DNA from: Spirochaetota bacterium
GTDB lineage: Bacteria; Spirochaetota; Brachyspiria; Brachyspirales; JACRPF01
Length of the DNA stretch: 64,000 nucleotides
Assembly: GCA_016214035.1 (NCBI GenBank)
Contig: JACRPF010000020.1
Location: forward strand, 68,800 to 132,799
Direction: 5' to 3'
Position numbers and translations under genes: made by a program. The number at the start of each line of letters is the position of its first letter. Positions within the stretch are counted from its first letter, which is position 1. This document shows positions 999-55,517 of this stretch, one piece after another. The notes beneath the pieces were generated by a model. That model saw nothing but the letters and a program-made list of their open reading frames with translations. It had not been told where the DNA came from and did not search any database.

Positions 999-1235
999 AC
1001 CCGCAGTATATGACAGACATCATTTCTGTCAAATGAAAGAAGTGCGCTATACGATTTATACTTTGAGCAATGCGCGATCTCTTCTACATTCCTGTCGCTC
1101 TCGCGTGGTCGCCGAATATGGCTCCGCAACGGCATCCAGCACCGCTTGCGCTCGGCATTAGCGCGGGGGTCTACTATACTCCGCGCATCCATGCGCGTAT
1201 TATCCTTGGCGCAATGCCATTTTTACCTTTCTGGT

Positions 1236-7408: not shown

Positions 7409-7437
7409 TTGACGCATGCCGTTGATGCGGGTATACT
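7409..7437 (+). promoter_or_regulatory. Sigma70-type promoter TTGACG-N17-TATACT
   Basis: -35 at 7409-7414, exact 17-nt spacer, -10 at 7432-7437. The track start codon at 7416 lies inside this promoter. Confidence 0.55.
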
Positions 7438-7493
7438 TACAACATAACTCTGCTGCATCACGATACTACCTCTTTGCCAAGGAAACACTATTT

Positions 7494-10400
7494 ATGATCA
7501 CCGCATGTCATCGCATCCTGCTCGCCATCTTTATGACTTCCGGTCTTTTCGCCCAATCAGGCAATCTGATAATCAACGGCGATTTCGAGACCGTTGAGAA
7601 CGACGCTCCCGCGGGATGGATAATAGCTCCCTACGGTTCAAAGAATACTGTTCTCACGTCGGCGGCGGAAGGTGACATCCGCGGCAAGGCATCCGCTCAT
7701 CTCAAGCATGAACGTGCGTCTGCGGAGACGGGAACCAAAGCCATTGTGCTGATAACCAAGGCAAAAGTGAACGGCATCATCGCAGGAACGGAATATCGCT
7801 TCCGCTTTGCCGCACGCGCCCCGGTGAAGGACCAGCAGCTTCGCGTCTATTATTACACCGACACTTCCATATCTCCGCATTACTATAAGATGAAAACCAT
7901 TACCGTAAGCGATGCGTGGGACGAATACGAGTTTGTCCTGAAACTTCCGCTCGCCGAGGACTGGAAAGACCGTGCGCTCTTCATGCGCTTTGACATCCCG
8001 TACGGCGAAGTATATCTTGACGACGTTGTTCTTGCGCCGAATACCGATGCTCCGGCAACGGAGAAAAAGTCCGCGTACGCCTCGCTCAATCGAAGGAACC
8101 TTTTTCAGAACTCGAGCTTTGAAATCGGCTTTGAGGAATATGCGCTCACCCGCGGGCTCTATATGCGGGGACGCGACGCGAACAACAACGAACCGCGCCA
8201 ACCGGTACTCGACACCGCAGAGAAAATGCACGGCAATGCGAGCCTCAGACTTGATAATCCCGACGGTGACGCCATGCTGTTCAGTTCACGCGATATCCAC
8301 ATCACTCCCGGCAAAGAGTATACGCTTTCCGGCTGGTTTAAAACCGACGGCGGCATCAAGGTAGTATCGCTTTCGATACTGAGCATCATATCGAGCGGTG
8401 CGCGGAAAAATGCAACCACCTGGTCCGAGGTCGGCGGTGAATGGAAACGCATGTCGGTGACATTCACCGCGGCGCCGAATCATGAATATTACACACTGCA
8501 GATAGGCAATATCGCCGAGGGCTATGGCAAGCAGCCGCCGCCGACACGGAATCAGGCGGGAACGATGTGGATTGACGGCATACAGCTCACCGAAGGAAAA
8601 TCGTCGAAATATGAACCCGATGATTTCGAAATAGGACTCGCGCTCACGACCAATCGCTATTACGCGTATACGCCGGATGAACCGTATATGGTGTCGTTCA
8701 GGGCGCTCAACAATACGTCCTCCGACACGGAAGTAAAATTCCGATATACGATCGAGGACTGCTATTTCAATAAAACAGTACGTACGGGCGAGACGGCGGT
8801 GATGACGCTTGCGGGAAACTCCACCGGCACCATCGCCGCGGAGATAAATCCGAAACGCTACGGATTGTTCGTCTTGAACTACGAACTTGTCAATGCAAAG
8901 ACCGGCGTCGTGCTCGATGCATACTCGTTCGATTACGCCGTCATCGGCAATATCATGGCTGCACCGGCACCGAAAGGATTCACGACCGGCGGGCAGATGA
9001 ACTTCCGCGCCAACTGGTTCGCGCAGAGCTGGGCTACGCAGCCCACACTCGTCTACTACGGCGCCACCATCGACGAAACATATGACTTCATCGCGAACGT
9101 AGGCGATCGCTGGTTCCGCTGCTGGGATTTCGGCTGGGGACACAACGAGGTGAACGAAGGAAATTATGAATGGCAGGTACTCGACCGGCAGATAGAAGAA
9201 CTCACCAAACGCGGCATGAGGATAGTGGCGTCGTTCGACACGCTCATCGTCGACGAGAAAAATCCGCAGTCGATATATGCGCATGTGCCGAAATGGGCGC
9301 AGGAACGTTACGGCGTCACCGACACCAAAGGAACGATGAAATGCCGCGTAAGCGTTCCGCCGGTTGAGATATGGGCGCGGTACTTCACGGAATGCGTGAA
9401 ACGCTACAAAGGGAAAGTGCGCGCATACGAGATATTCAATGAACCGAATCTCTGGCTTTCGCCGGAACTCTACACGCAATATCTGAAAACCGCGTGCAGT
9501 ATTGTCCGGGCGAACGACCCCGACGCCAAGGTCATCGGCTTCTGCGCCACGGGCGACCTCGGCGGCAATCTCCTCAAGTTCGTGAAGGAATGCATGAACC
9601 TCGGCGCGAACGACTATTTCGACGCGATGTCGTTTCACCCCTACGACTCGCGCCTTGACTCGAGCAGCTATCCGGCGGAGAAGGCCATCGCCGGGATCAA
9701 ACAGCTGCTCACCGACGTGGGTGCCGGCAAAAAAGACATCTGGAATTCCGAGCTTTTCTATCTTGAGGACGACCTGCCGGAATATTTCTACGGTTCGCAT
9801 GACGTCAAAGGACATCAATTCGCGCGCAGGCTTCTCATCGACCAGTTCCACGGAGTCGCACGTTCGGCGTGTCTTGACGGCGGCTACAACCGCGCACGCA
9901 TCGCTCCGCTTGCACTCGACCTGCCGCGCAAACCCATACCGAGCCGTTTCTATGTCATCAATAATGCATGGGCGCGCTTCTTCGAAGGCGGCAAACCGGC
10001 AAAACAGGTAAGCCTTACCGGAAAAAACAAGCTCTACATCTATGACCGACCGGACGGACCGGTTGCCGCATATTGGAACTACAGTTATGCGAAAAAAAGC
10101 ACGGCGGTTCTTGCCCTCAGGAATGCAAAAGAAAAAATAATTCTGTTCGACCTTATGGGCAACCCGCTTGAAAAACCGGTACTGAAAGATAACGGATATT
10201 TGCTCACTGAAAGCGCCGACCCGGTATACATCAGACCGAACGGTATCAGCCGGGATGAATTCCTGAAACTGATGGACAGCGCCGAAATGGAATATCAGGT
10301 ACCCGTGTCGATAACCGCGCGCATGGCATACAGGGAAGATAAACCCGTCATCGCCGCCGAACTCATGAACTATGCGGCCGAGGTCACGCCGGTGCGTCTC

Positions 10401-11234
10401 AGTTTCAAAGCATCGTCCGATGCGGTTTCCGCGTCCCCCGTTACCGTACAGGCAAAACCGCGGGATGCAACACCCGTCGTCTTTCCGCTGCAGTTCGATA
10501 AGCCGTGGACAGCAACGGAATTATCATTCAACGCCGAGGCGGGTACGAAACAATACGATCTTGCACCGGTATCAGTGCGGTATCGTCCGTTTGTTACCGC
10601 ATCGCGCGTTGAGAAAGCGCCGGTGATAGACGGTATAGTGAAATCGGATGAATGGAACACACGCGACCGCATTACCCTCGACTCGCTTGCTAATCTCAGA
10701 AACGCCGTACCCGCTGTCTGGGGAGGCGCAAACGACATGTCCGGCCGTGTTATGCTCAGCTGGGACAACAATGCGCTTTATCTCGGCTTCAAAGTGCTTG
10801 ACGACAAACGCGGCGAGCGCAATGACAGGCTCGGCGTGTGGAACAGCGACTGCATCGAGCTTTTCATCGACACCGCGGCTGACGATGCGCCAACGGCCAC
10901 CGGCTTCAATTCCCGCTGCTGTCAGTTGGTTATCGGCATGCCGACGGTAAAATTCCCGGAAGTCGTCATGTTCAAAGCGAGCGGTATGCTCGAAATGAAC
11001 ACGGCGAATCTGGCCGTTAAAACATCCGTGCAGCCGGGCGGCTATGATGTTGAACTGGCAATACCGTGGAAAGAACTCGGCGGCATTACACCTGCAGCGG
11101 GTATGCAGCTCGGGTTTGACGTATGCCTGAGCGACAATGACGCAACGGCGCGGAAACTGTCACTCGTCTGGTCGGGTGCCGATGATTATTACCGGAATCG
11201 ATTGAACTTCGGCAGGGTGCTGCTGTCGCGGTGA
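7494..11234 (+). CDS. Secreted multidomain glycoside hydrolase (N-terminal CBM4/9-like, clan GH-A TIM barrel, C-terminal CBM9-like)
   Basis: Start moved to ATG 7494, preceded by AAGGAA, giving signal peptide MITACHRILLAIFMTSGLFAQ. Catalytic-type motif YEIFNEPNLW. C-terminal DGIVKSDEW..WDNNALYLGFKVLDD..DCIELFID..GFDVCLSDND looks CBM9-like. Confidence 0.8.
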   Translation: MITACHRILLAIFMTSGLFAQSGNLIINGDFETVENDAPAGWIIAPYGSKNTVLTSAAEGDIRGKASAHLKHERASAETGTKAIVLITKAKVNGIIAGTEYRFRFAARAPVKDQQLRVYYYTDTSISPHYYKMKTITVSDAWDEYEFVLKLPLAEDWKDRALFMRFDIPYGEVYLDDVVLAPNTDAPATEKKSAYASLNRRNLFQNSSFEIGFEEYALTRGLYMRGRDANNNEPRQPVLDTAEKMHGNASLRLDNPDGDAMLFSSRDIHITPGKEYTLSGWFKTDGGIKVVSLSILSIISSGARKNATTWSEVGGEWKRMSVTFTAAPNHEYYTLQIGNIAEGYGKQPPPTRNQAGTMWIDGIQLTEGKSSKYEPDDFEIGLALTTNRYYAYTPDEPYMVSFRALNNTSSDTEVKFRYTIEDCYFNKTVRTGETAVMTLAGNSTGTIAAEINPKRYGLFVLNYELVNAKTGVVLDAYSFDYAVIGNIMAAPAPKGFTTGGQMNFRANWFAQSWATQPTLVYYGATIDETYDFIANVGDRWFRCWDFGWGHNEVNEGNYEWQVLDRQIEELTKRGMRIVASFDTLIVDEKNPQSIYAHVPKWAQERYGVTDTKGTMKCRVSVPPVEIWARYFTECVKRYKGKVRAYEIFNEPNLWLSPELYTQYLKTACSIVRANDPDAKVIGFCATGDLGGNLLKFVKECMNLGANDYFDAMSFHPYDSRLDSSSYPAEKAIAGIKQLLTDVGAGKKDIWNSELFYLEDDLPEYFYGSHDVKGHQFARRLLIDQFHGVARSACLDGGYNRARIAPLALDLPRKPIPSRFYVINNAWARFFEGGKPAKQVSLTGKNKLYIYDRPDGPVAAYWNYSYAKKSTAVLALRNAKEKIILFDLMGNPLEKPVLKDNGYLLTESADPVYIRPNGISRDEFLKLMDSAEMEYQVPVSITARMAYREDKPVIAAELMNYAAEVTPVRLSFKASSDAVSASPVTVQAKPRDATPVVFPLQFDKPWTATELSFNAEAGTKQYDLAPVSVRYRPFVTASRVEKAPVIDGIVKSDEWNTRDRITLDSLANLRNAVPAVWGGANDMSGRVMLSWDNNALYLGFKVLDDKRGERNDRLGVWNSDCIELFIDTAADDAPTATGFNSRCCQLVIGMPTVKFPEVVMFKASGMLEMNTANLAVKTSVQPGGYDVELAIPWKELGGITPAAGMQLGFDVCLSDNDATARKLSLVWSGADDYYRNRLNFGRVLLSR

Positions 11235-11573
11235 GATGTAGCGCGTTATTTTGCTGCGTTATCTCTATTGCTGCATGTTCCGGACGTTTTTCCGCATGCA
11301 GAAGTTTAATTTCTGCATACGACGGAATTGTTTCTGCACTCACCGCAGCACGTTCTGAGTGCGGCAGACTTGTTTCCAGGGACAGAATACGGAGCGATGA
11401 ACTCATCGGACGGGGTTCCGCATATCGCGGCTTTTCCGCCGCACTCACCGGACATCCCAGTGCATTCAGATGATGGTCCGCGGACCTTGGAAACAGGCCC
11501 GATACATCCGGATTAGTATCCGCTGTATGCGGCATGTATTCCGGCACCTGCAGAATATCAAGTCCGGGTGCAG

Positions 11574-11862
11574 CACAACGGCGTTTGAGCGATTATGAAC
11601 AACAACAGATTTTCTCTACTACCACTCATTTTTCCAACGCGCGATTGGCGAAGGGGAGAAATATCTTTCTGAGCACCGAGCATGTCGATTATCAAATCAA
11701 AAATATATAGCAAATAAAATCAACCCAATACTGCATCCGAGCGGCACGATGCCGCGAATGCGACGAATCTGTCCAAGGAAGGACAGCTGAGTCGCGCACG
11801 GTGCGAAGAAAGATATTTCTCCCCGAAACAAATAGCGCGTGCCTCCGGCCCGCGCCCCGCCG
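11574..11862 (+). repeat. Structured intergenic element, copy 1 (candidate ncRNA or structured repeat family)
   Basis: Aligns over its whole length with the reverse complement of 49790-50075. Perfect 18-bp helix 11653-11670 / 11807-11824, inner hairpins 11741-11755 and 11769-11786, helix 11760-11764 / 11791-11795. Strand assignment is tentative. Confidence 0.8.
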
Positions 11863-11863
11863 C

Positions 11864-12658
11864 TCACTTCTTCACATTATGCAGCAGATACCCCGCCGCC
11901 GTTCCATGATAAATGACGATATCCGCCATCCCGGTATATCCCTCGACAATTGGCACCGTATTCGAAACGATGCCGAGATTCACCGCATACGTCATCTCGC
12001 CGTTCGACTCGATCACCGATGATATCTCCTCCACCACCGCGGGGATAATCCCGTAGGTCTGGTAGGAAAAATTATCGAGCTTGACCGATGCCCGGCCGCC
12101 GATACTCACGTCCGGACGCGCGCGCTGGGTTATCTTCGACTTGAACATGAACTGTGCGCTGTCGGCATAGAGCATGACAACGCTACCCGTGTCCACGCTG
12201 TCGTGGAGCTTCACATACGTGCCGATGACCTTCCCGGCGAACGGCGCGGCATATGTCTTCTGCGTGATAGTCCCCGAGAGTGAGATGATGTCCTGCATGG
12301 TCTGCTCGTAATCGCGGCGAAGCGTGTAGAGCCGCTGCGGCGAACCGTACGGCGTATCTTCTTTCCGTATCTCGGCCTCGATGAGCGTTTTTGCTTTGAC
12401 GGCATGTTCAAGCCGTTTTTTCTCCGGCTCGGAATCCAGGGCGATGACGGTGTCTCCCGCCTTCACGAACTGGTTCGTCGCGATATACGATACGGTGCCT
12501 GCGAGCGGAAAACGGACTTTTATCATCTGCCGCTGCTCGATGCGTCCGGGTGCAGGGACCGAGAAATCGATGCGCACCGTGAGCGCGGTGATGATGATGA
12601 CCAGAAAAAGTCCGCCGAGTATGCTCAGAAACAGTGCCGCAATGCGTATGAGCTTCAT
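11864..12658 (-). CDS. HlyD-family membrane-fusion / secretion adaptor protein
   Basis: N-terminal TM helix, barrel-sandwich and coiled-coil style sequence. Its ATG overlaps the upstream ABC gene stop (ATGA at 12655-12658). Confidence 0.8.
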   Translation of the reverse strand: MKLIRIAALFLSILGGLFLVIIITALTVRIDFSVPAPGRIEQRQMIKVRFPLAGTVSYIATNQFVKAGDTVIALDSEPEKKRLEHAVKAKTLIEAEIRKEDTPYGSPQRLYTLRRDYEQTMQDIISLSGTITQKTYAAPFAGKVIGTYVKLHDSVDTGSVVMLYADSAQFMFKSKITQRARPDVSIGGRASVKLDNFSYQTYGIIPAVVEEISSVIESNGEMTYAVNLGIVSNTVPIVEGYTGMADIVIYHGTAAGYLLHNVKK

Positions 12659-14619
12659 GATACCACCTTCGCTTCCGCCGCCTGCTTATCGCCGTCATCC
12701 CAGCGGAGCACCGTGGGCGTAGTCTTTTTCATCTGCGTCATGTAGAGCTTGTGATAGCGTCCTTTGCGCTGCAGCAGTTTGCGGTGTGTCCCTTCCTCGA
12801 CCTTTAAGCCTTTGTCTATCACCACGATATTGTCAGCGTCCATCACCGTAGAGAGTCGGTGCGCGATGACGATGATAGTACGGCCCACGAATATCTTTTT
12901 CATCGCATCCTGGATGAGTTCCTCGCTTTCCGAGTCGAGATTGCTCGTCGCTTCGTCGAGTATGAGAAGTTCGGGGTCGGTGAGTATCGCGCGTGCGAGT
13001 GCGAGCCGCTGACGCTGACCGCCGGAGAGCTTCACGCCGCGTTCGCCGATAACCGTCTCGTATTTCTTCTCGAGCGAATCGACGAACTCGTGGCAGTGCG
13101 CCGTCTTAGCCGCGGCGATGACCTCTTCAAGCGTTGCATCCGGTTTTCCGTAGGCGATATTGTCGATGACCGTCCCGTCGAAGAGGAACGTATCCTGCAG
13201 CACGAGACTTGAAAGCCCCCGGTAGTCGCCGAGTTTGCAGCTGCGTATATCCTCGCCGTCGATGAGAATGCGCCCGCCGGTGACGTCGTAAAACCGCATC
13301 ACGAGATTCGTTATCGTGCTCTTGCCGGCGCCGCTCGGGCCCACGAGCGCGGTGATGCTGCCGCGGGGTATGGTGAGATCGAAACCGGATATCGCCTTTG
13401 TCCCGTTGGGATAAGCGAACTCCACCTTGTCGAACACGATGTCCCTCGTTATGCCGTTAACACTCTTCGCATCCGACGCGTCTTTGATGGTGAGCGGTTC
13501 GTCGAGAAGTTCGAACACATGCTCCACGCAGGCGAGCGACACCTGCATCTCGGCGAACGATGACATTATCATGAATATCGGCTGGAAGAGCCAGTCGATG
13601 AATGAGATGAACACCACGAGTCCGCCGATGGACATTTTGTTGGTGATGACATGGTAGCCGCCGTAGAGATAGACCGCCACGAGGAGACACCAGTACATAA
13701 CCCAGATGACGCGATGCACCACCATGCTGATGCTCATGCCGTGGAGATATTTCCGGTAGATGAATTGATTGTCAACGACGAAATTGAACGACTCCGAGCG
13801 TTCACGACGGAACGCGCGCACCACCTGAATGCCTGAGAATGTCTCCGAAAGCCGCGCGGTAAGCGTTGACACTTCCTCGCGGAGCTTCTTGTGAAAGCGC
13901 CGCATGGTGTTGAAGATAAAATACGCGGCGATGACGACGACTGCCGCGAATGCGAGACACACGAGCGTGAGACGCCAGTTGAGGAAGAAAAGCGATCCCA
14001 GCCCCACCGTGAGCATCAGTATCGCGCGGAACGGACTGAACAGCCCCATCTGGAGGAGCGCCGACATGCGCTCGGCGTCGTTCTGCAGGCGCGAGATGAT
14101 GCCGCCCACTTTCAGTTCCTGCACTTTTTCGAGCGGCATCACCTGCAGATGCTGCATCATCTTTCGTTTTATGTTCGTCACGATGGTGCCGAGGAACGTG
14201 TTGATGATGTAGTCCTGCAGGAAGTTGAGCGACACGTTGGAAACGCCCACGCAGAGAAGCACGACGCAGAACGCCACGAGCACGCCGAAGTCGCGAGATG
14301 AGAGTATGTTGTCGATGATGAACTTTCCCGACCACGGCATCACCGCCTGCAGAAGCGTGTTCACGAGTATCATCACAAGTATGAACGCGATGCGTGAACG
14401 GCGCATCTTCAGTTCCGCGAAGTAACGCATGAGCGTTGCTTTTATCGGCTTTTTGGGTTTATCCTTATTTTTATCATCAGCGGCCGCATCAGGTTTTCCC
14501 TTGTCTGCCGGCGGTACTTCTTTTTTTTCGTCCTCGGGGCCGTCCTTGTCACCGAAGAGACCCTTCTCTTTGATGAATGTGCGATAGCGCTTACGGCTTC
14601 CTTCTTTCTCTTTCGGCAT
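12655..14619 (-). CDS. ABC exporter, fused permease/ATPase (MsbA-like) with a Lys-rich ~70-aa N-terminal extension
   Basis: Six-TM ABC membrane domain, Walker A GPSGAGKST, signature LSGGQRQR, Walker B LLILDEATS. Confidence 0.9.
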   Translation of the reverse strand: MPKEKEGSRKRYRTFIKEKGLFGDKDGPEDEKKEVPPADKGKPDAAADDKNKDKPKKPIKATLMRYFAELKMRRSRIAFILVMILVNTLLQAVMPWSGKFIIDNILSSRDFGVLVAFCVVLLCVGVSNVSLNFLQDYIINTFLGTIVTNIKRKMMQHLQVMPLEKVQELKVGGIISRLQNDAERMSALLQMGLFSPFRAILMLTVGLGSLFFLNWRLTLVCLAFAAVVVIAAYFIFNTMRRFHKKLREEVSTLTARLSETFSGIQVVRAFRRERSESFNFVVDNQFIYRKYLHGMSISMVVHRVIWVMYWCLLVAVYLYGGYHVITNKMSIGGLVVFISFIDWLFQPIFMIMSSFAEMQVSLACVEHVFELLDEPLTIKDASDAKSVNGITRDIVFDKVEFAYPNGTKAISGFDLTIPRGSITALVGPSGAGKSTITNLVMRFYDVTGGRILIDGEDIRSCKLGDYRGLSSLVLQDTFLFDGTVIDNIAYGKPDATLEEVIAAAKTAHCHEFVDSLEKKYETVIGERGVKLSGGQRQRLALARAILTDPELLILDEATSNLDSESEELIQDAMKKIFVGRTIIVIAHRLSTVMDADNIVVIDKGLKVEEGTHRKLLQRKGRYHKLYMTQMKKTTPTVLRWDDGDKQAAEAKVVS

Positions 14620-19388: not shown

Positions 19389-21680
19389 ATGAGCAGCGAA
19401 GTCATCAATCACTATTTTTTACAGCCCGAAGCCATCCCCGACGCACTTGAAAAGACCGTCTTTCACGCATATCCCGACGAGCCCATCCGCGTCTACGCAT
19501 TCTGCGATCTGAACGAAAAACTCTCGTTCGCCTCATCGTGGCTGGTCCTTACCGCCGGGCACCTCATCCATGCAAAACCCGATGCGTCAGGCGCCTGGAT
19601 ACTGAGCGCGCATGCGGTGAAAGACATCAACACGTTTGATTATCTCGACGGCATATCGTCAAGCCGCCTCGTCATCGTCGGAAAGAAAAAGGAGCTGATG
19701 CTTGCGGTTCATTTCACGCGCAGGCAGAGCCGCGCGGTGGGCAACTTTCAGTTCGTCGCCGAACAGTCGGTGAAGCGGCTTTCGAAAAAAGTGAAAGAAA
19801 AGGCGCTGGCCGACGATTTCGACCCCGGCGCCGAATACCGCGAGGCGATGCTCAACGCTGTGGAAAACTCAAAAGCGTCGCTCTCGATACCGAAGGCCGG
19901 CGTCATGCTGCGGCTGCTCTCGTATCTCAAACCGCACCGCAAGGCGGTGACACTCGGCTTCATATTCGCGTTTCTGTTAACCGCACTCCAGCTCATACCG
20001 CCCTACCTCACCCGGGTGCTCGTCGACGATATCGTACGACCGCTTGAAAAAGGATCCAATCCGAACGCATGGAAGATGCTCTGGACGGTGATCATCGCGC
20101 TCGCGTCCATATGGGCATCAAGCGAGTTCATTTCGTTCCTGAGACTCCGTATCATGTCTATCACCGGCGAGAAGATCGCCATGAACCTCCGCGATACGCT
20201 CTATGCGCATATGCAGAAACTGAGCCTCGCGTTCTTCACCTCGCGCTCAACCGGTTCGCTCATCACCCGCGTAAGCTCGGATACGGACCGCCTGTGGGAC
20301 TTCATCACCTTCGGTCTCATCGACATCGTCGTGTCGGTGCTGCAGATCATCGGTGTGGCCGTGGCGCTTTTCCTGCAGGACTGGCGTCTTGCCGTACTCG
20401 TTATCATCCCGCTTCCCATTATGACGCTCATGTTCTACTTTCACAGTAAAAAGATTCAGGTGTTCTTCCTCCGCATCTGGCGCAAATGGTCGGCGATGAC
20501 CGCGGTGCTTTCCGACGTCATCCCCGGCGTGCGCGTGGTCAAGGCGTTTGCGCAGGAAAAACGCGAGGTGGACCGCTTCCATAAACGGAGCCTCGCCGTT
20601 GAACAGGAAGCGGAAGTACTTCACAAAGAATGGACGCGCTTCTGGCCGTCGGTGGTGATGCTCATGCATACCTGCTCGCTCATCGTCTGGGTGGTGGGGG
20701 CTCCCCGCGTCATGCAGTACATGCTCACACACGGCAAGGAAGGTATGCCGCTCGGGGTTTTCATCGCGTTCACCGGATACATGTGGATGTTCTGGGCTCC
20801 CGTACAGCATCTGGGCATGATGAGCAGAACCGTCAACCGTGTCACCACATCGGCGTCGCGTATCTTCGAAGTGCTCGACACGGTTCCCACGGTGGTCAGC
20901 AAGCCCGATGCGAAGACGATATCGCGCATCAAGGGACGCGTGGCATTCGACGACGTTTCGTTCACGTACGACGGCGTGCGCAATACGCTCAAAGGCGTCA
21001 CGTTCGATGTACGGCCCGGCGAGATGATAGGCCTCGTGGGGCCGTCGGGCGGCGGGAAGACAACACTCGTGAACCTCATCTGCCGTTTCTATGACGTGAA
21101 GGACGGCTCTGTGCGCGTGGACAACCGCGACGTCCGCGATCTTGAACTTACCGCACTCCGCCGTCAGATAGGCGTGGTGCTCCAGGAACCGTATCTGTTC
21201 CACGGCACCATCGCCGAGAATATCGCCTACGGATCAAAGGGTGTATCACTGAAGGATATACTCGCCGCGGCGAAGGCTGCAAACGCGCACGAGTTCATCT
21301 GCGGATTCGCCGACGGTTACGAGACCATGGTGGGCGAACGCGGGCAGACGCTCTCCGGCGGCGAACGCCAGCGCATATCGATAGCACGCGCGATACTTCA
21401 TAATCCGCGCATTCTCATCCTCGATGAAGCGACGAGTTCGGTGGATACGGAAACGGAGAAGCGCATACAGGAGGCGTTGCACCGGCTCGTGGAAGGACGC
21501 ACCACATTCGCCATCGCGCACCGTTTGTCGACGCTTTCCAGCGCCAACCGGCTGTTCGTCATGGAGGACGGCAAGCTTGCCGAACATGGAACGCATAAAG
21601 AACTTTTGAAAAAGAAAAACGGCATCTATGCCAAGCTTCATAAAACACAGGCGCAGCTGCATGCGGCGATAGCAGTATAA
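19389..21680 (+). CDS. ABC exporter, fused permease/ATPase with a ~170-aa soluble N-terminal domain
   Basis: Walker A GPSGGGKTT, LSGGERQR, ILILDEATS. The N-terminal 170 aa have no TM segments. Confidence 0.9.
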   Translation: MSSEVINHYFLQPEAIPDALEKTVFHAYPDEPIRVYAFCDLNEKLSFASSWLVLTAGHLIHAKPDASGAWILSAHAVKDINTFDYLDGISSSRLVIVGKKKELMLAVHFTRRQSRAVGNFQFVAEQSVKRLSKKVKEKALADDFDPGAEYREAMLNAVENSKASLSIPKAGVMLRLLSYLKPHRKAVTLGFIFAFLLTALQLIPPYLTRVLVDDIVRPLEKGSNPNAWKMLWTVIIALASIWASSEFISFLRLRIMSITGEKIAMNLRDTLYAHMQKLSLAFFTSRSTGSLITRVSSDTDRLWDFITFGLIDIVVSVLQIIGVAVALFLQDWRLAVLVIIPLPIMTLMFYFHSKKIQVFFLRIWRKWSAMTAVLSDVIPGVRVVKAFAQEKREVDRFHKRSLAVEQEAEVLHKEWTRFWPSVVMLMHTCSLIVWVVGAPRVMQYMLTHGKEGMPLGVFIAFTGYMWMFWAPVQHLGMMSRTVNRVTTSASRIFEVLDTVPTVVSKPDAKTISRIKGRVAFDDVSFTYDGVRNTLKGVTFDVRPGEMIGLVGPSGGGKTTLVNLICRFYDVKDGSVRVDNRDVRDLELTALRRQIGVVLQEPYLFHGTIAENIAYGSKGVSLKDILAAAKAANAHEFICGFADGYETMVGERGQTLSGGERQRISIARAILHNPRILILDEATSSVDTETEKRIQEALHRLVEGRTTFAIAHRLSTLSSANRLFVMEDGKLAEHGTHKELLKKKNGIYAKLHKTQAQLHAAIAV

Positions 21681-48320: not shown

Positions 48321-49727
48321 TCATTCCAGCGGCAGTATACTGTCGATAAGTACAACGGCAAACTGGTGCTCGTGATCCGGGAATTTCGGTTTGTATTTCT
48401 GCGGGTCGTCGGCGAAGCGTCCCTTATCCCATTCCGCGGCGATGAGCTTCTTGGTCTCGCGCAGCAGCGTATTGAACGCAGCCTTCCCGGCTCCGTCTGA
48501 AGACTTATTGAGCACATGATAACCGCTCACAAGATACGCGCACTTTGCGGCGAGCAGCATTGCCTCGTAGATATCCGCATTCTTTTTCGGCTGATACCAT
48601 GACGCGATATCGAGAAGCTCCTTCGCGTTGGAGAATACCGCCGCAAGCGCTTTCACATCGTCCTTGCCGGTAAGCGGCTTGTTATCGACCGCGCCTTTCG
48701 CCGCACGATGATCGATGACGAGTGACGGATAAAGTATCAGAACTGTCGCGAGCGTGTCGTTGAGATCGCTTCCGAATACCGTTTCCGCGAACCGCGCGTG
48801 GAATTTTTTATCGTTTATCTTTCCTTTCCCCTTGTATACCTCGGCGCTGTACGCAATGCCGTAATACAATGCCGATTGAATATACCGGAACGGGCACCAT
48901 ATCGTTGTGATGAGACCGAGCGCATTGTGTTTGAACGCGAACGACGCCATCTTCTGTGTATTCTCAAGCGCGATGTCGTTCGGCAGAAAGCGGTACTCCC
49001 AGCAGGCTATCGACGGAGCCGTGATTATTTTTTTAAACCCGGCGCCCGCAAGTTTCGCGTGAACGTCGTCTTTCACCGTGCGATGATAGCGCCAATCGAT
49101 GAGTATAACATCCTTTCTGATAAGCTTTGCGATCTTTTTATCTTTTGTCGGGTGATCCGCCCACATCATCGGCGTTTTCTTCGCACCTTTCACCATGCCG
49201 ATAATCGTATTCACATACTCCGCCCATGTTGCCGATTCATCAAGCCCGCTGTTCGCTTTGCAATACTCCTTCAGATCGACTTCGTCACATCCTATATGAA
49301 GAAAGTCGCTTGAAAAGACCTTCGCCGTGGCGGCGATAAGCTTTTTCATCACCGCTAATGTCTCTTTGTTCTTCGGATCGACGGCATTGAACGTAAGCTC
49401 TTTCGTCTTCTTTCCCGCATACAGATGTTTGTATTCCTTGCGGTCGGTGAGATAGCGCGTATGCCCGAATGTCTCAAGTTCCGGGATGATATCTATCTTC
49501 TTTTTCGCCGCATAGGCGACAAGCGCTTTCATGTCCTTCGCGGTGAACGCATGCGGTTCGGCGACGGTCTCAAACCCGGGAAGCGCCACGGACATTCCGG
49601 TATCGTCGGTAAAATGCCAGAGGAGCGTGTTCATCCCCCACTCCGCCATGAAATCGATGAGGCGCCGGTAGTAATCGTGCTGCTCGATAATCCGTGTGCA
49701 GTCTATCATGATGCCGTTGATACGCAT
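48321..49727 (-). CDS. GH20-like beta-N-acetylhexosaminidase
   Basis: MRINGIMIDCTR..LLWHFTDD..ETFGHTRY..HIGCDEVD. Start moved to ATG 49727, preceded by AAGGA 8 nt upstream, because the track ATG at 49760 overlaps the -10 box. Confidence 0.85.
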   Translation of the reverse strand: MRINGIMIDCTRIIEQHDYYRRLIDFMAEWGMNTLLWHFTDDTGMSVALPGFETVAEPHAFTAKDMKALVAYAAKKKIDIIPELETFGHTRYLTDRKEYKHLYAGKKTKELTFNAVDPKNKETLAVMKKLIAATAKVFSSDFLHIGCDEVDLKEYCKANSGLDESATWAEYVNTIIGMVKGAKKTPMMWADHPTKDKKIAKLIRKDVILIDWRYHRTVKDDVHAKLAGAGFKKIITAPSIACWEYRFLPNDIALENTQKMASFAFKHNALGLITTIWCPFRYIQSALYYGIAYSAEVYKGKGKINDKKFHARFAETVFGSDLNDTLATVLILYPSLVIDHRAAKGAVDNKPLTGKDDVKALAAVFSNAKELLDIASWYQPKKNADIYEAMLLAAKCAYLVSGYHVLNKSSDGAGKAAFNTLLRETKKLIAAEWDKGRFADDPQKYKPKFPDHEHQFAVVLIDSILPLE

Positions 49728-49758
49728 GCGGTAAATCCTTGCGGTCAGAGTGTGGGGC

Positions 49759-49786
49759 ATTATATCCGTTTGGCGGGTATCGTCAA
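49759..49786 (-). promoter_or_regulatory. Sigma70-type promoter TTGACG-N16-TATAAT for the GH20 gene
   Basis: -35 is the reverse complement of 49781-49786. The perfect -10 is the reverse complement of 49759-49764. Confidence 0.6.
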
Positions 49787-49789
49787 TCG

Positions 49790-50075
49790 GCGACGCCGGA
49801 GGCGGAGGACGCGCGTTATTGCTGGGGAAAAATGTATTTCCTTGCGCCGCGCGCGACTCAGCCGTCCGTCCGTGGACGGATTCGTCGCATACGCGCCATC
49901 GTGGCGCTGTCTATTACAATTAGAATTATCTGGATGTTATATCACCATGAATTGTTGCATTTAATGCGCGGCGCGAGGAAACACATTTTTCCCTTCGCAT
50001 ATCACGCGGTGAAAAAATGAATAGTGATAGTGGTAAAAGATGTAGTTGCTATACAAACGCTCGAACGCCGTTGTG
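49790..50075 (-). repeat. Structured intergenic element, copy 2 (candidate ncRNA or structured repeat family)
   Basis: The reverse complement aligns with 11574-11862. Long helix arms at 49977-49993 and 49824-49841 plus a 9-bp GC extension. Hairpins at 49893-49907 and 49862-49879. Strand assignment is tentative. Confidence 0.8.
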
Positions 50076-50477
50076 TTTCGGGATGTGCGGGATGATGTTA
50101 TTTCGCCGCACATCATTACATAAAGTATACTACAGCTTTTGCAGCATCTGATTATACAGGATTACATACGCCGCCTGTACGAACTGCACAACATTCATTT
50201 CCTTCCCGCTTAGACAGGCTCAGCACTAGTTTTGGACTTACGAGCGGATCACTTGCCATATCTTTAGTATCATACCTGCCAATTCTTTCCGCACTTGCGC
50301 TTCACATCGGTGGCGGCTCTGACGCTCGTGCGTTTACCTTCGGCTTTCTTCAAATCCTATCTTGCAGTGCACACCCTTGCCGTTTAGCCAATGTTCTCCT
50401 TACCGAATTCATTTGAGACTTTGGTCGGTGAGCTTGCCGGACCATCACGTGTAAGTGAATGCGCCCTTGTCGGTCGC

Positions 50478-50521
50478 ACCAAATAGTAAGGACTGATGGC
50501 GACCAATATCGCCATCAGTCC
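50478..50521 (-). terminator. Likely terminator of the che-like operon
   Basis: Perfect 13-bp stem GGACUGAUGGCGA / UCGCCAUCAGUCC (50490-50521) with a 6-nt loop, followed in sense by UUACUAUUUGG. Lies about 80 nt after the cheW stop. Confidence 0.5.
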
Positions 50522-50600
50522 CAAGCACGCATCAACACGTCATATTTTTTTTTGCAGACTCACCTTCTTTTGTTCGATTATTGCGTGCATTCCTCCAATT

Positions 50601-51122
50601 TTATACCGCCATTTCGCCCGCGGTTATGTCATTCACTGAAACTTCTTTCACATATTCAAGCTCTTTTTTCGAAAACACCTTGCTCGAGTCGAGAATAATA
50701 ATAAAATCATCCCCTTTTTTTCCAATGTTGTCGATGAACTCACCGCTTACATTCATCCCCACTTTCGGCGGCACCTCTATTTGCGATGAATCGAGGCGGA
50801 TCACCTCCTTGACCGCATCCACCAAGGCACCGATAATGATGATTTCGCCATCAAATTCCGTTTCAACGATAATGATAGCCGTATCAACAGTATGACTATT
50901 GCCGTTCATCTCGAATTTCAACCGCAAATCTATTACAGGAACCACACCACCGCGAAGATTTATCACTCCGGTCATGAACGACGGCGTCTTCGGCACCTTG
51001 GTGATGCGCGTCACTTCAAGCACCTCTTTCACCTTGAGAACCTCAAACGCGAACAACTCCCTATCGAGAATGAACGTAAGATATTGTTTCGATTCAAGCG
51101 TTGCCTTAGATTTTGTTTCCAT
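50601..51122 (-). CDS. cheW: Chemotaxis coupling protein CheW
   Basis: QYLTFILDRELFAFEVLKVKEV..VINLRGGVVPVIDLR. Confidence 0.9.
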   Translation of the reverse strand: METKSKATLESKQYLTFILDRELFAFEVLKVKEVLEVTRITKVPKTPSFMTGVINLRGGVVPVIDLRLKFEMNGNSHTVDTAIIIVETEFDGEIIIIGALVDAVKEVIRLDSSQIEVPPKVGMNVSGEFIDNIGKKGDDFIIILDSSKVFSKKELEYVKEVSVNDITAGEMAV

Positions 51123-55330: not shown

Positions 55331-55517
55331 ATACTCCTCCTTTTTTACTAGTTATTCTCAAATCGTACATTTACACTAATTACTGTCGCTCTCGCGGTGC
55401 ATCCTGCACCGCTTGCGCTAGCGTAGCGCGGGTGCTCACAACACTGTGCGCATCCATGCGCGGGTCCATTCGTGAATACTAATGTTCTTTTCTTATTCGT
55501 CATATAATAGTCCCGCG

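Follow-up and report, generated by a model that had tools for sequence, protein, structure and literature searches.

An intergenic element of about 290 nt is present twice, in inverted orientation, in a 64,000-nucleotide stretch of DNA from a Spirochaetota bacterium (NCBI GenBank assembly GCA_016214035.1, contig JACRPF010000020.1, positions 68,800 to 132,799 of the forward strand; hereafter the window). Copy 1 lies at 11574-11862 on the plus strand and copy 2 at 49788-50075 on the minus strand, these strands being taken as sense. Both copies adopt one fold, and all substitutions in its helices preserve pairing. We tentatively interpret the copies as diverged, paralogous and lineage-restricted structured non-coding RNAs under purifying selection, a reading to which we give slightly less than an even chance. 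Because no described family fits, the element is a candidate new family within a familiar kind, the orphan structured intergenic RNA or repeat. The other explanations considered below are ranked, in order of decreasing probability, as a mobile module related to class C group II (IIC) introns, a DNA-level site, and a leader of the neighbouring GH20 hexosaminidase gene.

A common fold with pair-preserving substitutions

Folded alone, each copy adopts the common architecture, with a minimum free energy (MFE) of -105 kcal/mol for copy 1 (z = -7.4) and -110 kcal/mol for copy 2 (z = -6.4), and 0 of 200 shuffles folded as well as either copy. The RNAalifold consensus holds 57 pairs that are 100% paired in both copies (114/114 cells are standard pairs). 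The long helix, here called P3, and the helices Pa, Pc and Pb had been proposed in the initial annotation of this DNA, and all of them were recovered in the MFE folds of both copies. The long helix P3 is a perfect 18 bp in copy 1 (11653-11670 with 11807-11824) and 17 bp including one G-U in copy 2 (49993-49977 with 49841-49825). A GC-rich extension (5' strand 11673-11681) continues it, and P3 and the extension together occupy 11653-11681 (+) on the 5' side and 11796-11824 (+) on the 3' side. A further helix of 6 bp, P2, is formed by 11638-11643 (+) with 11836-11841. Hairpin Pa (11741-11755, +; GCGGCA-cga-TGCCGC) is followed by the conserved core (11756-11797, +), which consists of a GAAT linker and then an irregular hairpin, Pc/Pb, with a symmetric GA/GA internal loop (Pc, 11760-11764 with 11791-11795; Pb, 11769-11786). 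The 3' strand of P2 leads into a C-rich tail (together 11836-11862, +) with CCTCC at 11842-11846, a motif that occurs twice in copy 2 (49808-49804 and 49802-49798). The CGCCG of the tail may pair with 11579-11583 in a weak outer helix of 5 bp; this helix and the exact 3' boundary are soft because the alignment is poor over the final ~20 nt at the 3' side.

The paired sites carry 18 substitutions, which make up eight double changes and two one-sided, wobble-compatible changes, with no broken pair. Five pairs changed on both sides, and none broken, are found among the 25 pairs of P3 and its extension. One G-C to C-G swap distinguishes Pa of copy 2, one pair of Pb is compensated, and the eighth double change sits in a weak 3-bp hairpin; both one-sided changes are in P2. 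All seven compensatory pairs listed in the initial annotation were verified, and the eighth double change and helix P2 were added to them. As a control, the 3' partners were slid by 1-3 columns, which left 0-1 double changes. When 18 substitutions were placed randomly in paired sites (200,000 trials), a mean of 9.7 pairs and a minimum of 2 pairs were broken, against the observed 0. Paired sites have changed at a rate of 16%, compared with 40% for unpaired sites, and the core junction nucleotides, including the tandem GA/GA loop, are invariant between the copies.

These findings support the earlier proposal that the fold has been selected over the sequence. The conclusion that selection has acted on the fold, in a purifying and pair-preserving manner since the copies diverged, is sound, with the caveat that the fold comes from the same two sequences. 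In addition, compensatory change between only two sequences does not by itself separate an RNA from a mobile element with co-evolved master copies.

Uneven divergence between the copies

Over its whole length, 11574-11862 (+) aligns end to end with 50075-49788 (-) in inverted orientation, confirming the match first noticed by eye. The match is supported by pairwise alignments and by the covariance model (CM) R1, which scores copy 1 at 345 bits and copy 2 at 344 bits. The near-identity described initially holds for the short blocks CACAACGGCGTTYGAGCG (17/18), TCATTTTT, GCGAAGGG, ATGCGACGAATC, GCTGAGTCGCGC and GCCTCCGGC (11841-11849), all of which are present, and does not hold for the whole copies, which are only ~67% identical (202/301 alignment columns). 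The '80-84% mean column identity' given by the alignment tool scores each mismatch between two sequences as 50%. The whole sequence set consists of these two copies, both from one metagenome-assembled genome.

The divergence is strongly uneven along the element. The 5' conserved block CACAACGGCGTTTGAGCG (11574-11591, +) is mostly unpaired and is identical to 50075-50058 at 17 of 18 positions. It is followed by a G-poor and apparently single-stranded 5' arm (11592-11637, +; 3 G in 49 nt) that contains the conserved TCATTTTT; the arm is 65% identical between the copies, with an alignment score far above that of shuffles (p = 0, 2000 shuffles). The A-rich linker of the three-way junction (11682-11740, +) has kept its length, at 59 nt in copy 1 and 58 nt in copy 2, and its similarity is at chance level (global alignment against 2000 shuffles, p = 0.52), which agrees with the earlier description of a central spacer of matching length and little identity. 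Pa is identical at 13 of 15 positions and the Pc/Pb core at 35 of 40, with an exact 24-nt frame in both copies and with differences confined to the linker, the Pb loop and the compensated Pb pair. The 3' tail is 47% identical. A linker at chance level beside a nearly invariant core argues for continued selection, which would have acted at these loci.

Sense strand and coding potential

Three wobble events give pairs on the sense strand alone: both one-sided changes of P2 and, in P3, a C-G pair that became G-U. The conserved 2x2 loop reads GA/GA on the sense strand and UC/UC on the opposite strand, and tandem GA/GA is a common stabilising RNA motif. Unpaired positions on the sense strand are 34-39% A, and the group II intron fragment described below lies on the same strand as copy 2. 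The MFE is slightly lower for the antisense strands (-116 kcal/mol, against -105 and -110 kcal/mol for the sense strands), so the strand is called from the three wobble events and the motif arguments. A further point against the call is that copy 1 must be read antisense at the end of the HlyD operon transcript, unless that transcript stops inside copy 1. With moderate, not firm, confidence, the predicted RNA strand is plus for copy 1 and minus for copy 2.

No open reading frame (ORF) is common to both copies in frame with a common start. An open antisense frame runs through the core, in the GC-rich half of the element; direct reading of its codon alignment gives ~12 non-synonymous and 3 synonymous differences. 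No Pfam match was found in any frame of the element, and the concatenated six-frame translation had no match among 5.8 billion proteins. Among 1.84 billion representatives, the only matches to a profile of the antisense frame were a repetitive lipoprotein and, weakly, a repeat protein, and both matches are spurious. The reading frames and searches show the element to be non-coding. A type I toxin-antitoxin or small-protein locus was rejected on the same grounds: there is no conserved small ORF, the differences are mostly non-synonymous, and protein homologues were not found.

Distribution of the element

The initial annotation placed the element in no known RNA, insertion sequence or miniature inverted-repeat transposable element (MITE) family, and this assessment still stands. 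Rfam 15, run over the whole window at gathering threshold, reported only tRNA-Arg. The Rfam search of both copies proposed earlier was carried out on both strands at E <= 10, where only miRNA/sRNA noise of 14-17 bits appeared and no family matched. Terminal inverted repeats, target-site duplications and a conserved ORF are likewise missing from the copies.

Pattern and CM R1 searches found two copies only within the 64-kb window. An identical copy 2 is present on a Logan contig from SRR12113407. Scans for the exact core in 185,579 GTDB species genomes gave 0 matches and then 20 chance matches, mostly in Planctomycetota coding DNA; the same scan of JGI metagenomes gave one chance match, inside a gene, and that of IMG/VR nine, with none for the 5' block. 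The element was not found by blastn against plasmids and phages, nor by the CM over ~60 kb of DNA from relatives.

The nearest relatives that could be reached are without the element at both loci. Their GH20 orthologues (66% and 62% identity) are preceded by a 118-nt upstream region that does not contain it, and the HlyD orthologue (73% identity), also without it, is separated by 24 nt from a convergent ABC-F gene downstream. The gene order of the window also differs from that of the nearest relative (7416-14619 compared with GCA_964356905.1): there, CBM9 is followed by three minus-strand genes and then by ABC-HlyD (+) and the convergent ABC-F, and in the window ABC-HlyD is inverted relative to CBM9 and abuts copy 1. 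Both copies sit where synteny with the relative breaks. The absence from the relatives' loci together with the altered gene order shows that insertion or rearrangement in this lineage is the route by which the unit reached both loci.

Genomic setting of the copies

A convergent HlyD-family gene (11864-12658, -) has its stop codon 1 nt away from the 3' end of copy 1, and the 73%-identical orthologue retains the C-terminus and length of this gene. The GH20 gene is located downstream of copy 2 on the same strand. A sigma-70-type promoter, TTGACG-16-TATAAT (49759-49786, -), matches 11 of 12 consensus positions and begins 2 nt after the last conserved base of copy 2. Two relatives keep the -10 of this promoter, the 5' untranslated region (UTR), the ribosome-binding site AAGGA and the ATG at 49727, and their similarity to the window ends at the -35. 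In its longest form the GH20 ORF opens with an ATG overlapping TATAAT (window 49727-49760, -), and the Logan gene call is the corresponding 479-aa form; the 468-aa NCBI protein starts at ATG 49727, which, after AAGGA, is almost certainly the true start. A weak divergent promoter-like site, TTGCGG-16-TATATC (49741-49775, +), was read by eye back to back with the GH20 promoter; it is below the scan criteria and could start a transcript antisense to copy 2.

The position of copy 2 could suggest a cis-regulatory, riboswitch-like leader of the GH20/NagB amino-sugar genes that is transcribed from a distal promoter, and this has the smallest probability of the explanations considered. Direct reading finds a TATAAT hexamer at 50156-50151 that could give a long leader, and the conserved core resembles an aptamer-like junction. 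However, the 11/12-match promoter stands between copy 2 and GH20, and its -10 and the 5' UTR are the parts kept by relatives whose 118-nt upstream regions lack the element. Copy 1, moreover, points into the 3' end of a convergent gene and has no gene to regulate, and neither copy has a terminator or a platform that could sequester a Shine-Dalgarno sequence, or a terminator-like site after it. Because the promoter lies between copy 2 and GH20, these data show that the element is not the 5' leader of GH20.

The copies flank 38 kb in inverted orientation, and this interior holds DprA, FlgG, FlgA, DAHP synthase, glycogen phosphorylase, LysA and tRNA-Arg. The arrangement invites a DNA-level explanation, which we consider very improbable, in which the inverted arms (18-26 bp) and palindromes serve as protein-binding or recombination sites, or the copies as substrates for inversion of the 38 kb. 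The inversion of ABC-HlyD beside copy 1 relative to the nearest relative would fit such a role; Pa and Pb are perfect palindromes, and DNA bending could occur at the A/T-rich linker. At palindromic protein sites, however, the bases are conserved and do not covary, whereas Pa, Pb and the long arms have changed on both sides. Three of the changes give G-T, which pairs in RNA and is mismatched in duplex or cruciform DNA. An identity of 67% is also too low for recent homologous recombination, core genes lie between the copies, and no recombinase was found among the ORFs scanned.

Three related proposals were tried and rejected. The copies are not taken as the ends of a 38-kb mobile element, as the interior holds core genes and no integrase or recombinase was found among the scanned ORFs. 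An inverton was rejected given that there is no sense-strand promoter-like site between the arms, that the GH20 promoter lies outside them, and that the scanned ORFs include no recombinase. For a programmable guide RNA (bridge RNA, omega/reRNA), no match of at least 9 nt between flank and interior was found in either sense, and no recombinase or nuclease gene was seen among the Pfam-scanned ORFs.

Upstream of the copies, the flanks have no significant similarity at DNA or protein level, and a search for decayed genes gave no Pfam signal in 10 of 12 frames of these regions. A hairpin of 9 bp (50082-50114, -; z = -4.3) ends 6 nt upstream of copy 2, and a weaker 7-bp hairpin (11544-11571; z = -1.2) occupies the matching place before copy 1, with loops of 14-15 nt in both. 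These paired hairpins may be a 5' extension of the element. A TAGTAT motif occurs at -60 and -57 of the copies, with no significance in overall k-mer sharing (P = 0.13); the motif and hairpin as a common domain-III-like feature are only a lead. Further upstream of copy 1 and downstream of the CBM9 gene is a terminator-like hairpin, CTGCATG ... CATGCAG, with a 17-nt loop followed by AAGTTTAATTTC (11271-11301, +). The 270 nt of non-coding DNA between this hairpin and copy 1 fold modestly better than shuffles (z = -2.6).

Other repeated sequences of the window were also recorded. A 15-mer common to the GH20 promoter and to DNA 51 nt beyond copy 1 was discarded, as it falls in the conserved C-terminal codons of HlyD. 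A second, unrelated intergenic repeat pair lies in direct orientation at 1132-1197 (+) and 55399-55462 (+); it is ~66 nt long, is roughly 85% identical over its core and ends in the palindrome CGCGCAT-CC-ATGCGCG. An 80-nt inverted match of 75% between 12983-13062 and 21318-21397, between ABC-transporter genes (12655-14619, - and 19389-21680, +), most likely stems from ATPase domains that are paralogous, rather than from a repeat element.

A group II intron remnant upstream of copy 2

The DNA upstream of copy 2 contains a further feature that bears on the origin of the element. The intrinsic terminator of the CheA-MCP-CheW operon (50489-50522, -; 15-bp stem) is separated from copy 2 by a gap of 413 nt, and GTGCG at 50479-50475 directly follows its T-rich tail. 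The 5' portion (domain I) of a class C group II intron was identified here at 50278-50479 (-), possibly extending to ~50115. The match of Rfam RF02001 (group-II-D1D4-3) to 50371-50278 reached 19.6 bits (E = 0.06), short of the 32 bits set for gathering. By blastn, 78 nt matched domain I of IIC introns that encode ltrA and are carried on IncC plasmids (77% identity, E = 1e-4). Compared with the Rfam D1D4-3 model, the fragment has an internal deletion of ~74 nt. Together, the intron fragment and copy 2 fill the entire gap from the terminator to the GH20 -35. Class C introns characteristically insert just after intrinsic terminators (PMC1702495; PMC4424553). This insertion-site rule, the terminator and the domain I match together indicate that the DNA preceding copy 2 on its strand includes the 5' part of a IIC intron.

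The arrangement suggests that the element might represent the domain-IV side of an intron derivative, but several results count against this. No domain V/VI (RF00029) was detected at E <= 10 in 11200-12000 or 49650-50620; as a control, the same model scored 49.6 bits on a real IIC intron. Remnants of an intron-encoded protein (IEP) were not found by Pfam in the sense frames of the element or in the upstream-region frames scanned, and the element has no resemblance to the IEP N-termini of four IIC introns. Five genuine IIC introns that were examined are without the element. Group II signal is also missing inside the 290-nt element and from the 270 nt that precede copy 1. Of the leads obtained, the adjacency to the intron is the most interesting and also the likeliest route to an ordinary explanation.

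The main rival explanation, possible but less probable than paralogous RNAs, is that the element is a non-autonomous mobile module, perhaps the domain-IV side of an ORF-less derivative of a terminator-targeting IIC intron. Its fold would then be selected for propagation, through binding of a reverse transcriptase or maturase supplied in trans or through formation of single-stranded DNA or RNA intermediates; the copies would stem from diverged masters, and the 5' ribozyme part would have decayed differently at each locus. The continuity of copy 2 with a IIC 5' part that begins with GTGCG after a terminator T tail, the canonical site, fits this account, as does the position of copy 1, 270 nt downstream of a same-strand terminator-like hairpin. 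So do the absence of the element from both loci in the closest relatives, the unrelated flanks, and the location of the copies at gene-order breakpoints, with both 3' ends abutting functional gene boundaries.

On the other side, neither intergenic region contains domain V/VI, and an intron without domain V is capable of neither splicing nor reverse splicing. Loss of the 5' end, rather than of the 3' end, is the usual form of truncation in retroelement copies. The genuine IIC introns, plasmids and phages searched do not contain the element, and the DNA upstream of copy 1 has neither a group II signal nor significant similarity to that upstream of copy 2. No reverse transcriptase, transposase or integrase was present among the window ORFs scanned with Pfam. 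Terminal inverted repeats are missing from the homology boundaries: the inverted arms of 18-26 bp are internal, and homology extends past them by ~80 nt (5') and ~40 nt (3'), unlike the terminal repeats of MITEs. There is no target-site duplication, as the flanks GTGCAG / CTCACT (copy 1) and CGAAA / ATTGAC (copy 2) share nothing. Finally, a linker that is saturated in sequence but kept in length, beside a near-invariant core, points to continued selection.

A combination of the two ideas was also considered and appears improbable, though less so than a DNA-level site. Under this proposal, the 290-nt module would be an undescribed structured RNA in the domain-IV position of a terminator-targeting IIC derivative that is without its protein gene and domains V-VI. 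It would be cargo that an intron vehicle delivered, or around which that vehicle was domesticated, and it would be kept by selection at two loci as the ribozyme part decays.

Proposed function and comparison with known systems

If the copies are paralogous structured RNAs, it is the sense strand that would act, in the form of RNA. In the fold, P2, P3 (17-18 bp) and the GC-rich extension stack into a rod that closes a three-way junction carrying the length-kept, sequence-free A-rich linker, hairpin Pa and the irregular hairpin Pc/Pb, with a G-poor single-stranded arm before the rod and a C-rich CCUCC arm after it. The rod could serve as a stabilising scaffold and the invariant Pa-Pc/Pb core as a surface that is specifically recognised, most likely by a protein. 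Contacts with mRNAs may be made by the exposed arms, through the conserved 5' block and through CCUCC, which is anti-Shine-Dalgarno-like. By functional analogy, the copies may be sibling regulatory or decoy RNAs that are kept as two diverged copies in one genome.

Such siblings include GlmY/GlmZ, CsrB/CsrC and 6S-1/6S-2. Like these, the element is non-coding, stands alone between genes at two loci, and combines a common fold with short invariant single-stranded or junction segments and an otherwise diverged sequence. GlmY and GlmZ act on glmS, and copy 2 is likewise located beside amino-sugar genes. The predicted RNA, however, has no sequence or covariance-model similarity to them, has no promoter or intrinsic terminator common to its copies, and at ~290 nt is longer than most.

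Other systems resemble the element in different respects. In common with IIC introns and their ORF-less or truncated derivatives, it is a predicted, highly structured RNA with compensatory evolution that has neither terminal repeats nor target duplications. Copy 2 runs on from a domain I that starts with GTGCG just after an intrinsic terminator, and the element lies where domain IV would start. It differs from them in having no domain V, domain VI, 3' AY end or intron-encoded protein or remnant thereof, in being absent from the real IIC introns examined, and in that copy 1 is without a recognisable domain I. The ERIC, Correia/CREE, BOX and REP-type repeats are also short, non-coding, long imperfect hairpins that are intergenic, species-restricted and found by promoters or gene ends. 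However, these repeats have tens to hundreds of copies and terminal inverted repeats, whereas the element is known in two copies, its arms are internal, it has no target duplication and its divergence is strongly non-uniform. With raiA, OLE, HEARO and GOLLD/ROOL-type RNAs it has in common a covariation-supported multi-helix junction, long GC-rich helices, and an intergenic and orphan character, but the Rfam models of these families do not match it, and they have hundreds of representatives across taxa compared with two in one genome.

Statistical support is strong for the fold and thin for the remaining inferences, and several points weigh against paralogous RNAs as the explanation. The fold was derived from the same two sequences that were used for the covariation count, and these are only two sequences from one metagenome-assembled genome. 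Diverged master elements would make the compensatory differences no proof of function at these loci. The sharp 5' boundary of homology, the absence from the relatives' loci and the fusion of copy 2 to the intron remnant are equally compatible with a mobile origin. The arrangement of the CCUCC arm is poorly conserved, as its 47% identity reflects, the antisense strands fold slightly more stably than the sense strands, and no recognisable 5' promoter or 3' intrinsic terminator is common to the copies.

Outlook

The present case illustrates both the reach and the limits of a comparison between two copies. Two diverged copies can suffice to establish a fold statistically, and two copies in one metagenome-assembled genome cannot separate a host RNA gene from a co-evolved mobile element. 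The intron adjacency raises the question of whether IIC introns can carry or seed structured RNA modules beyond their own ribozyme and protein gene. If the element is a functional RNA, it would represent a new family among the few bacterial non-coding RNAs that are large and built of many helices, and it would come from a spirochaete lineage with little sampling. The invariant core of its junction would be a natural candidate for a site bound by a protein or ligand.

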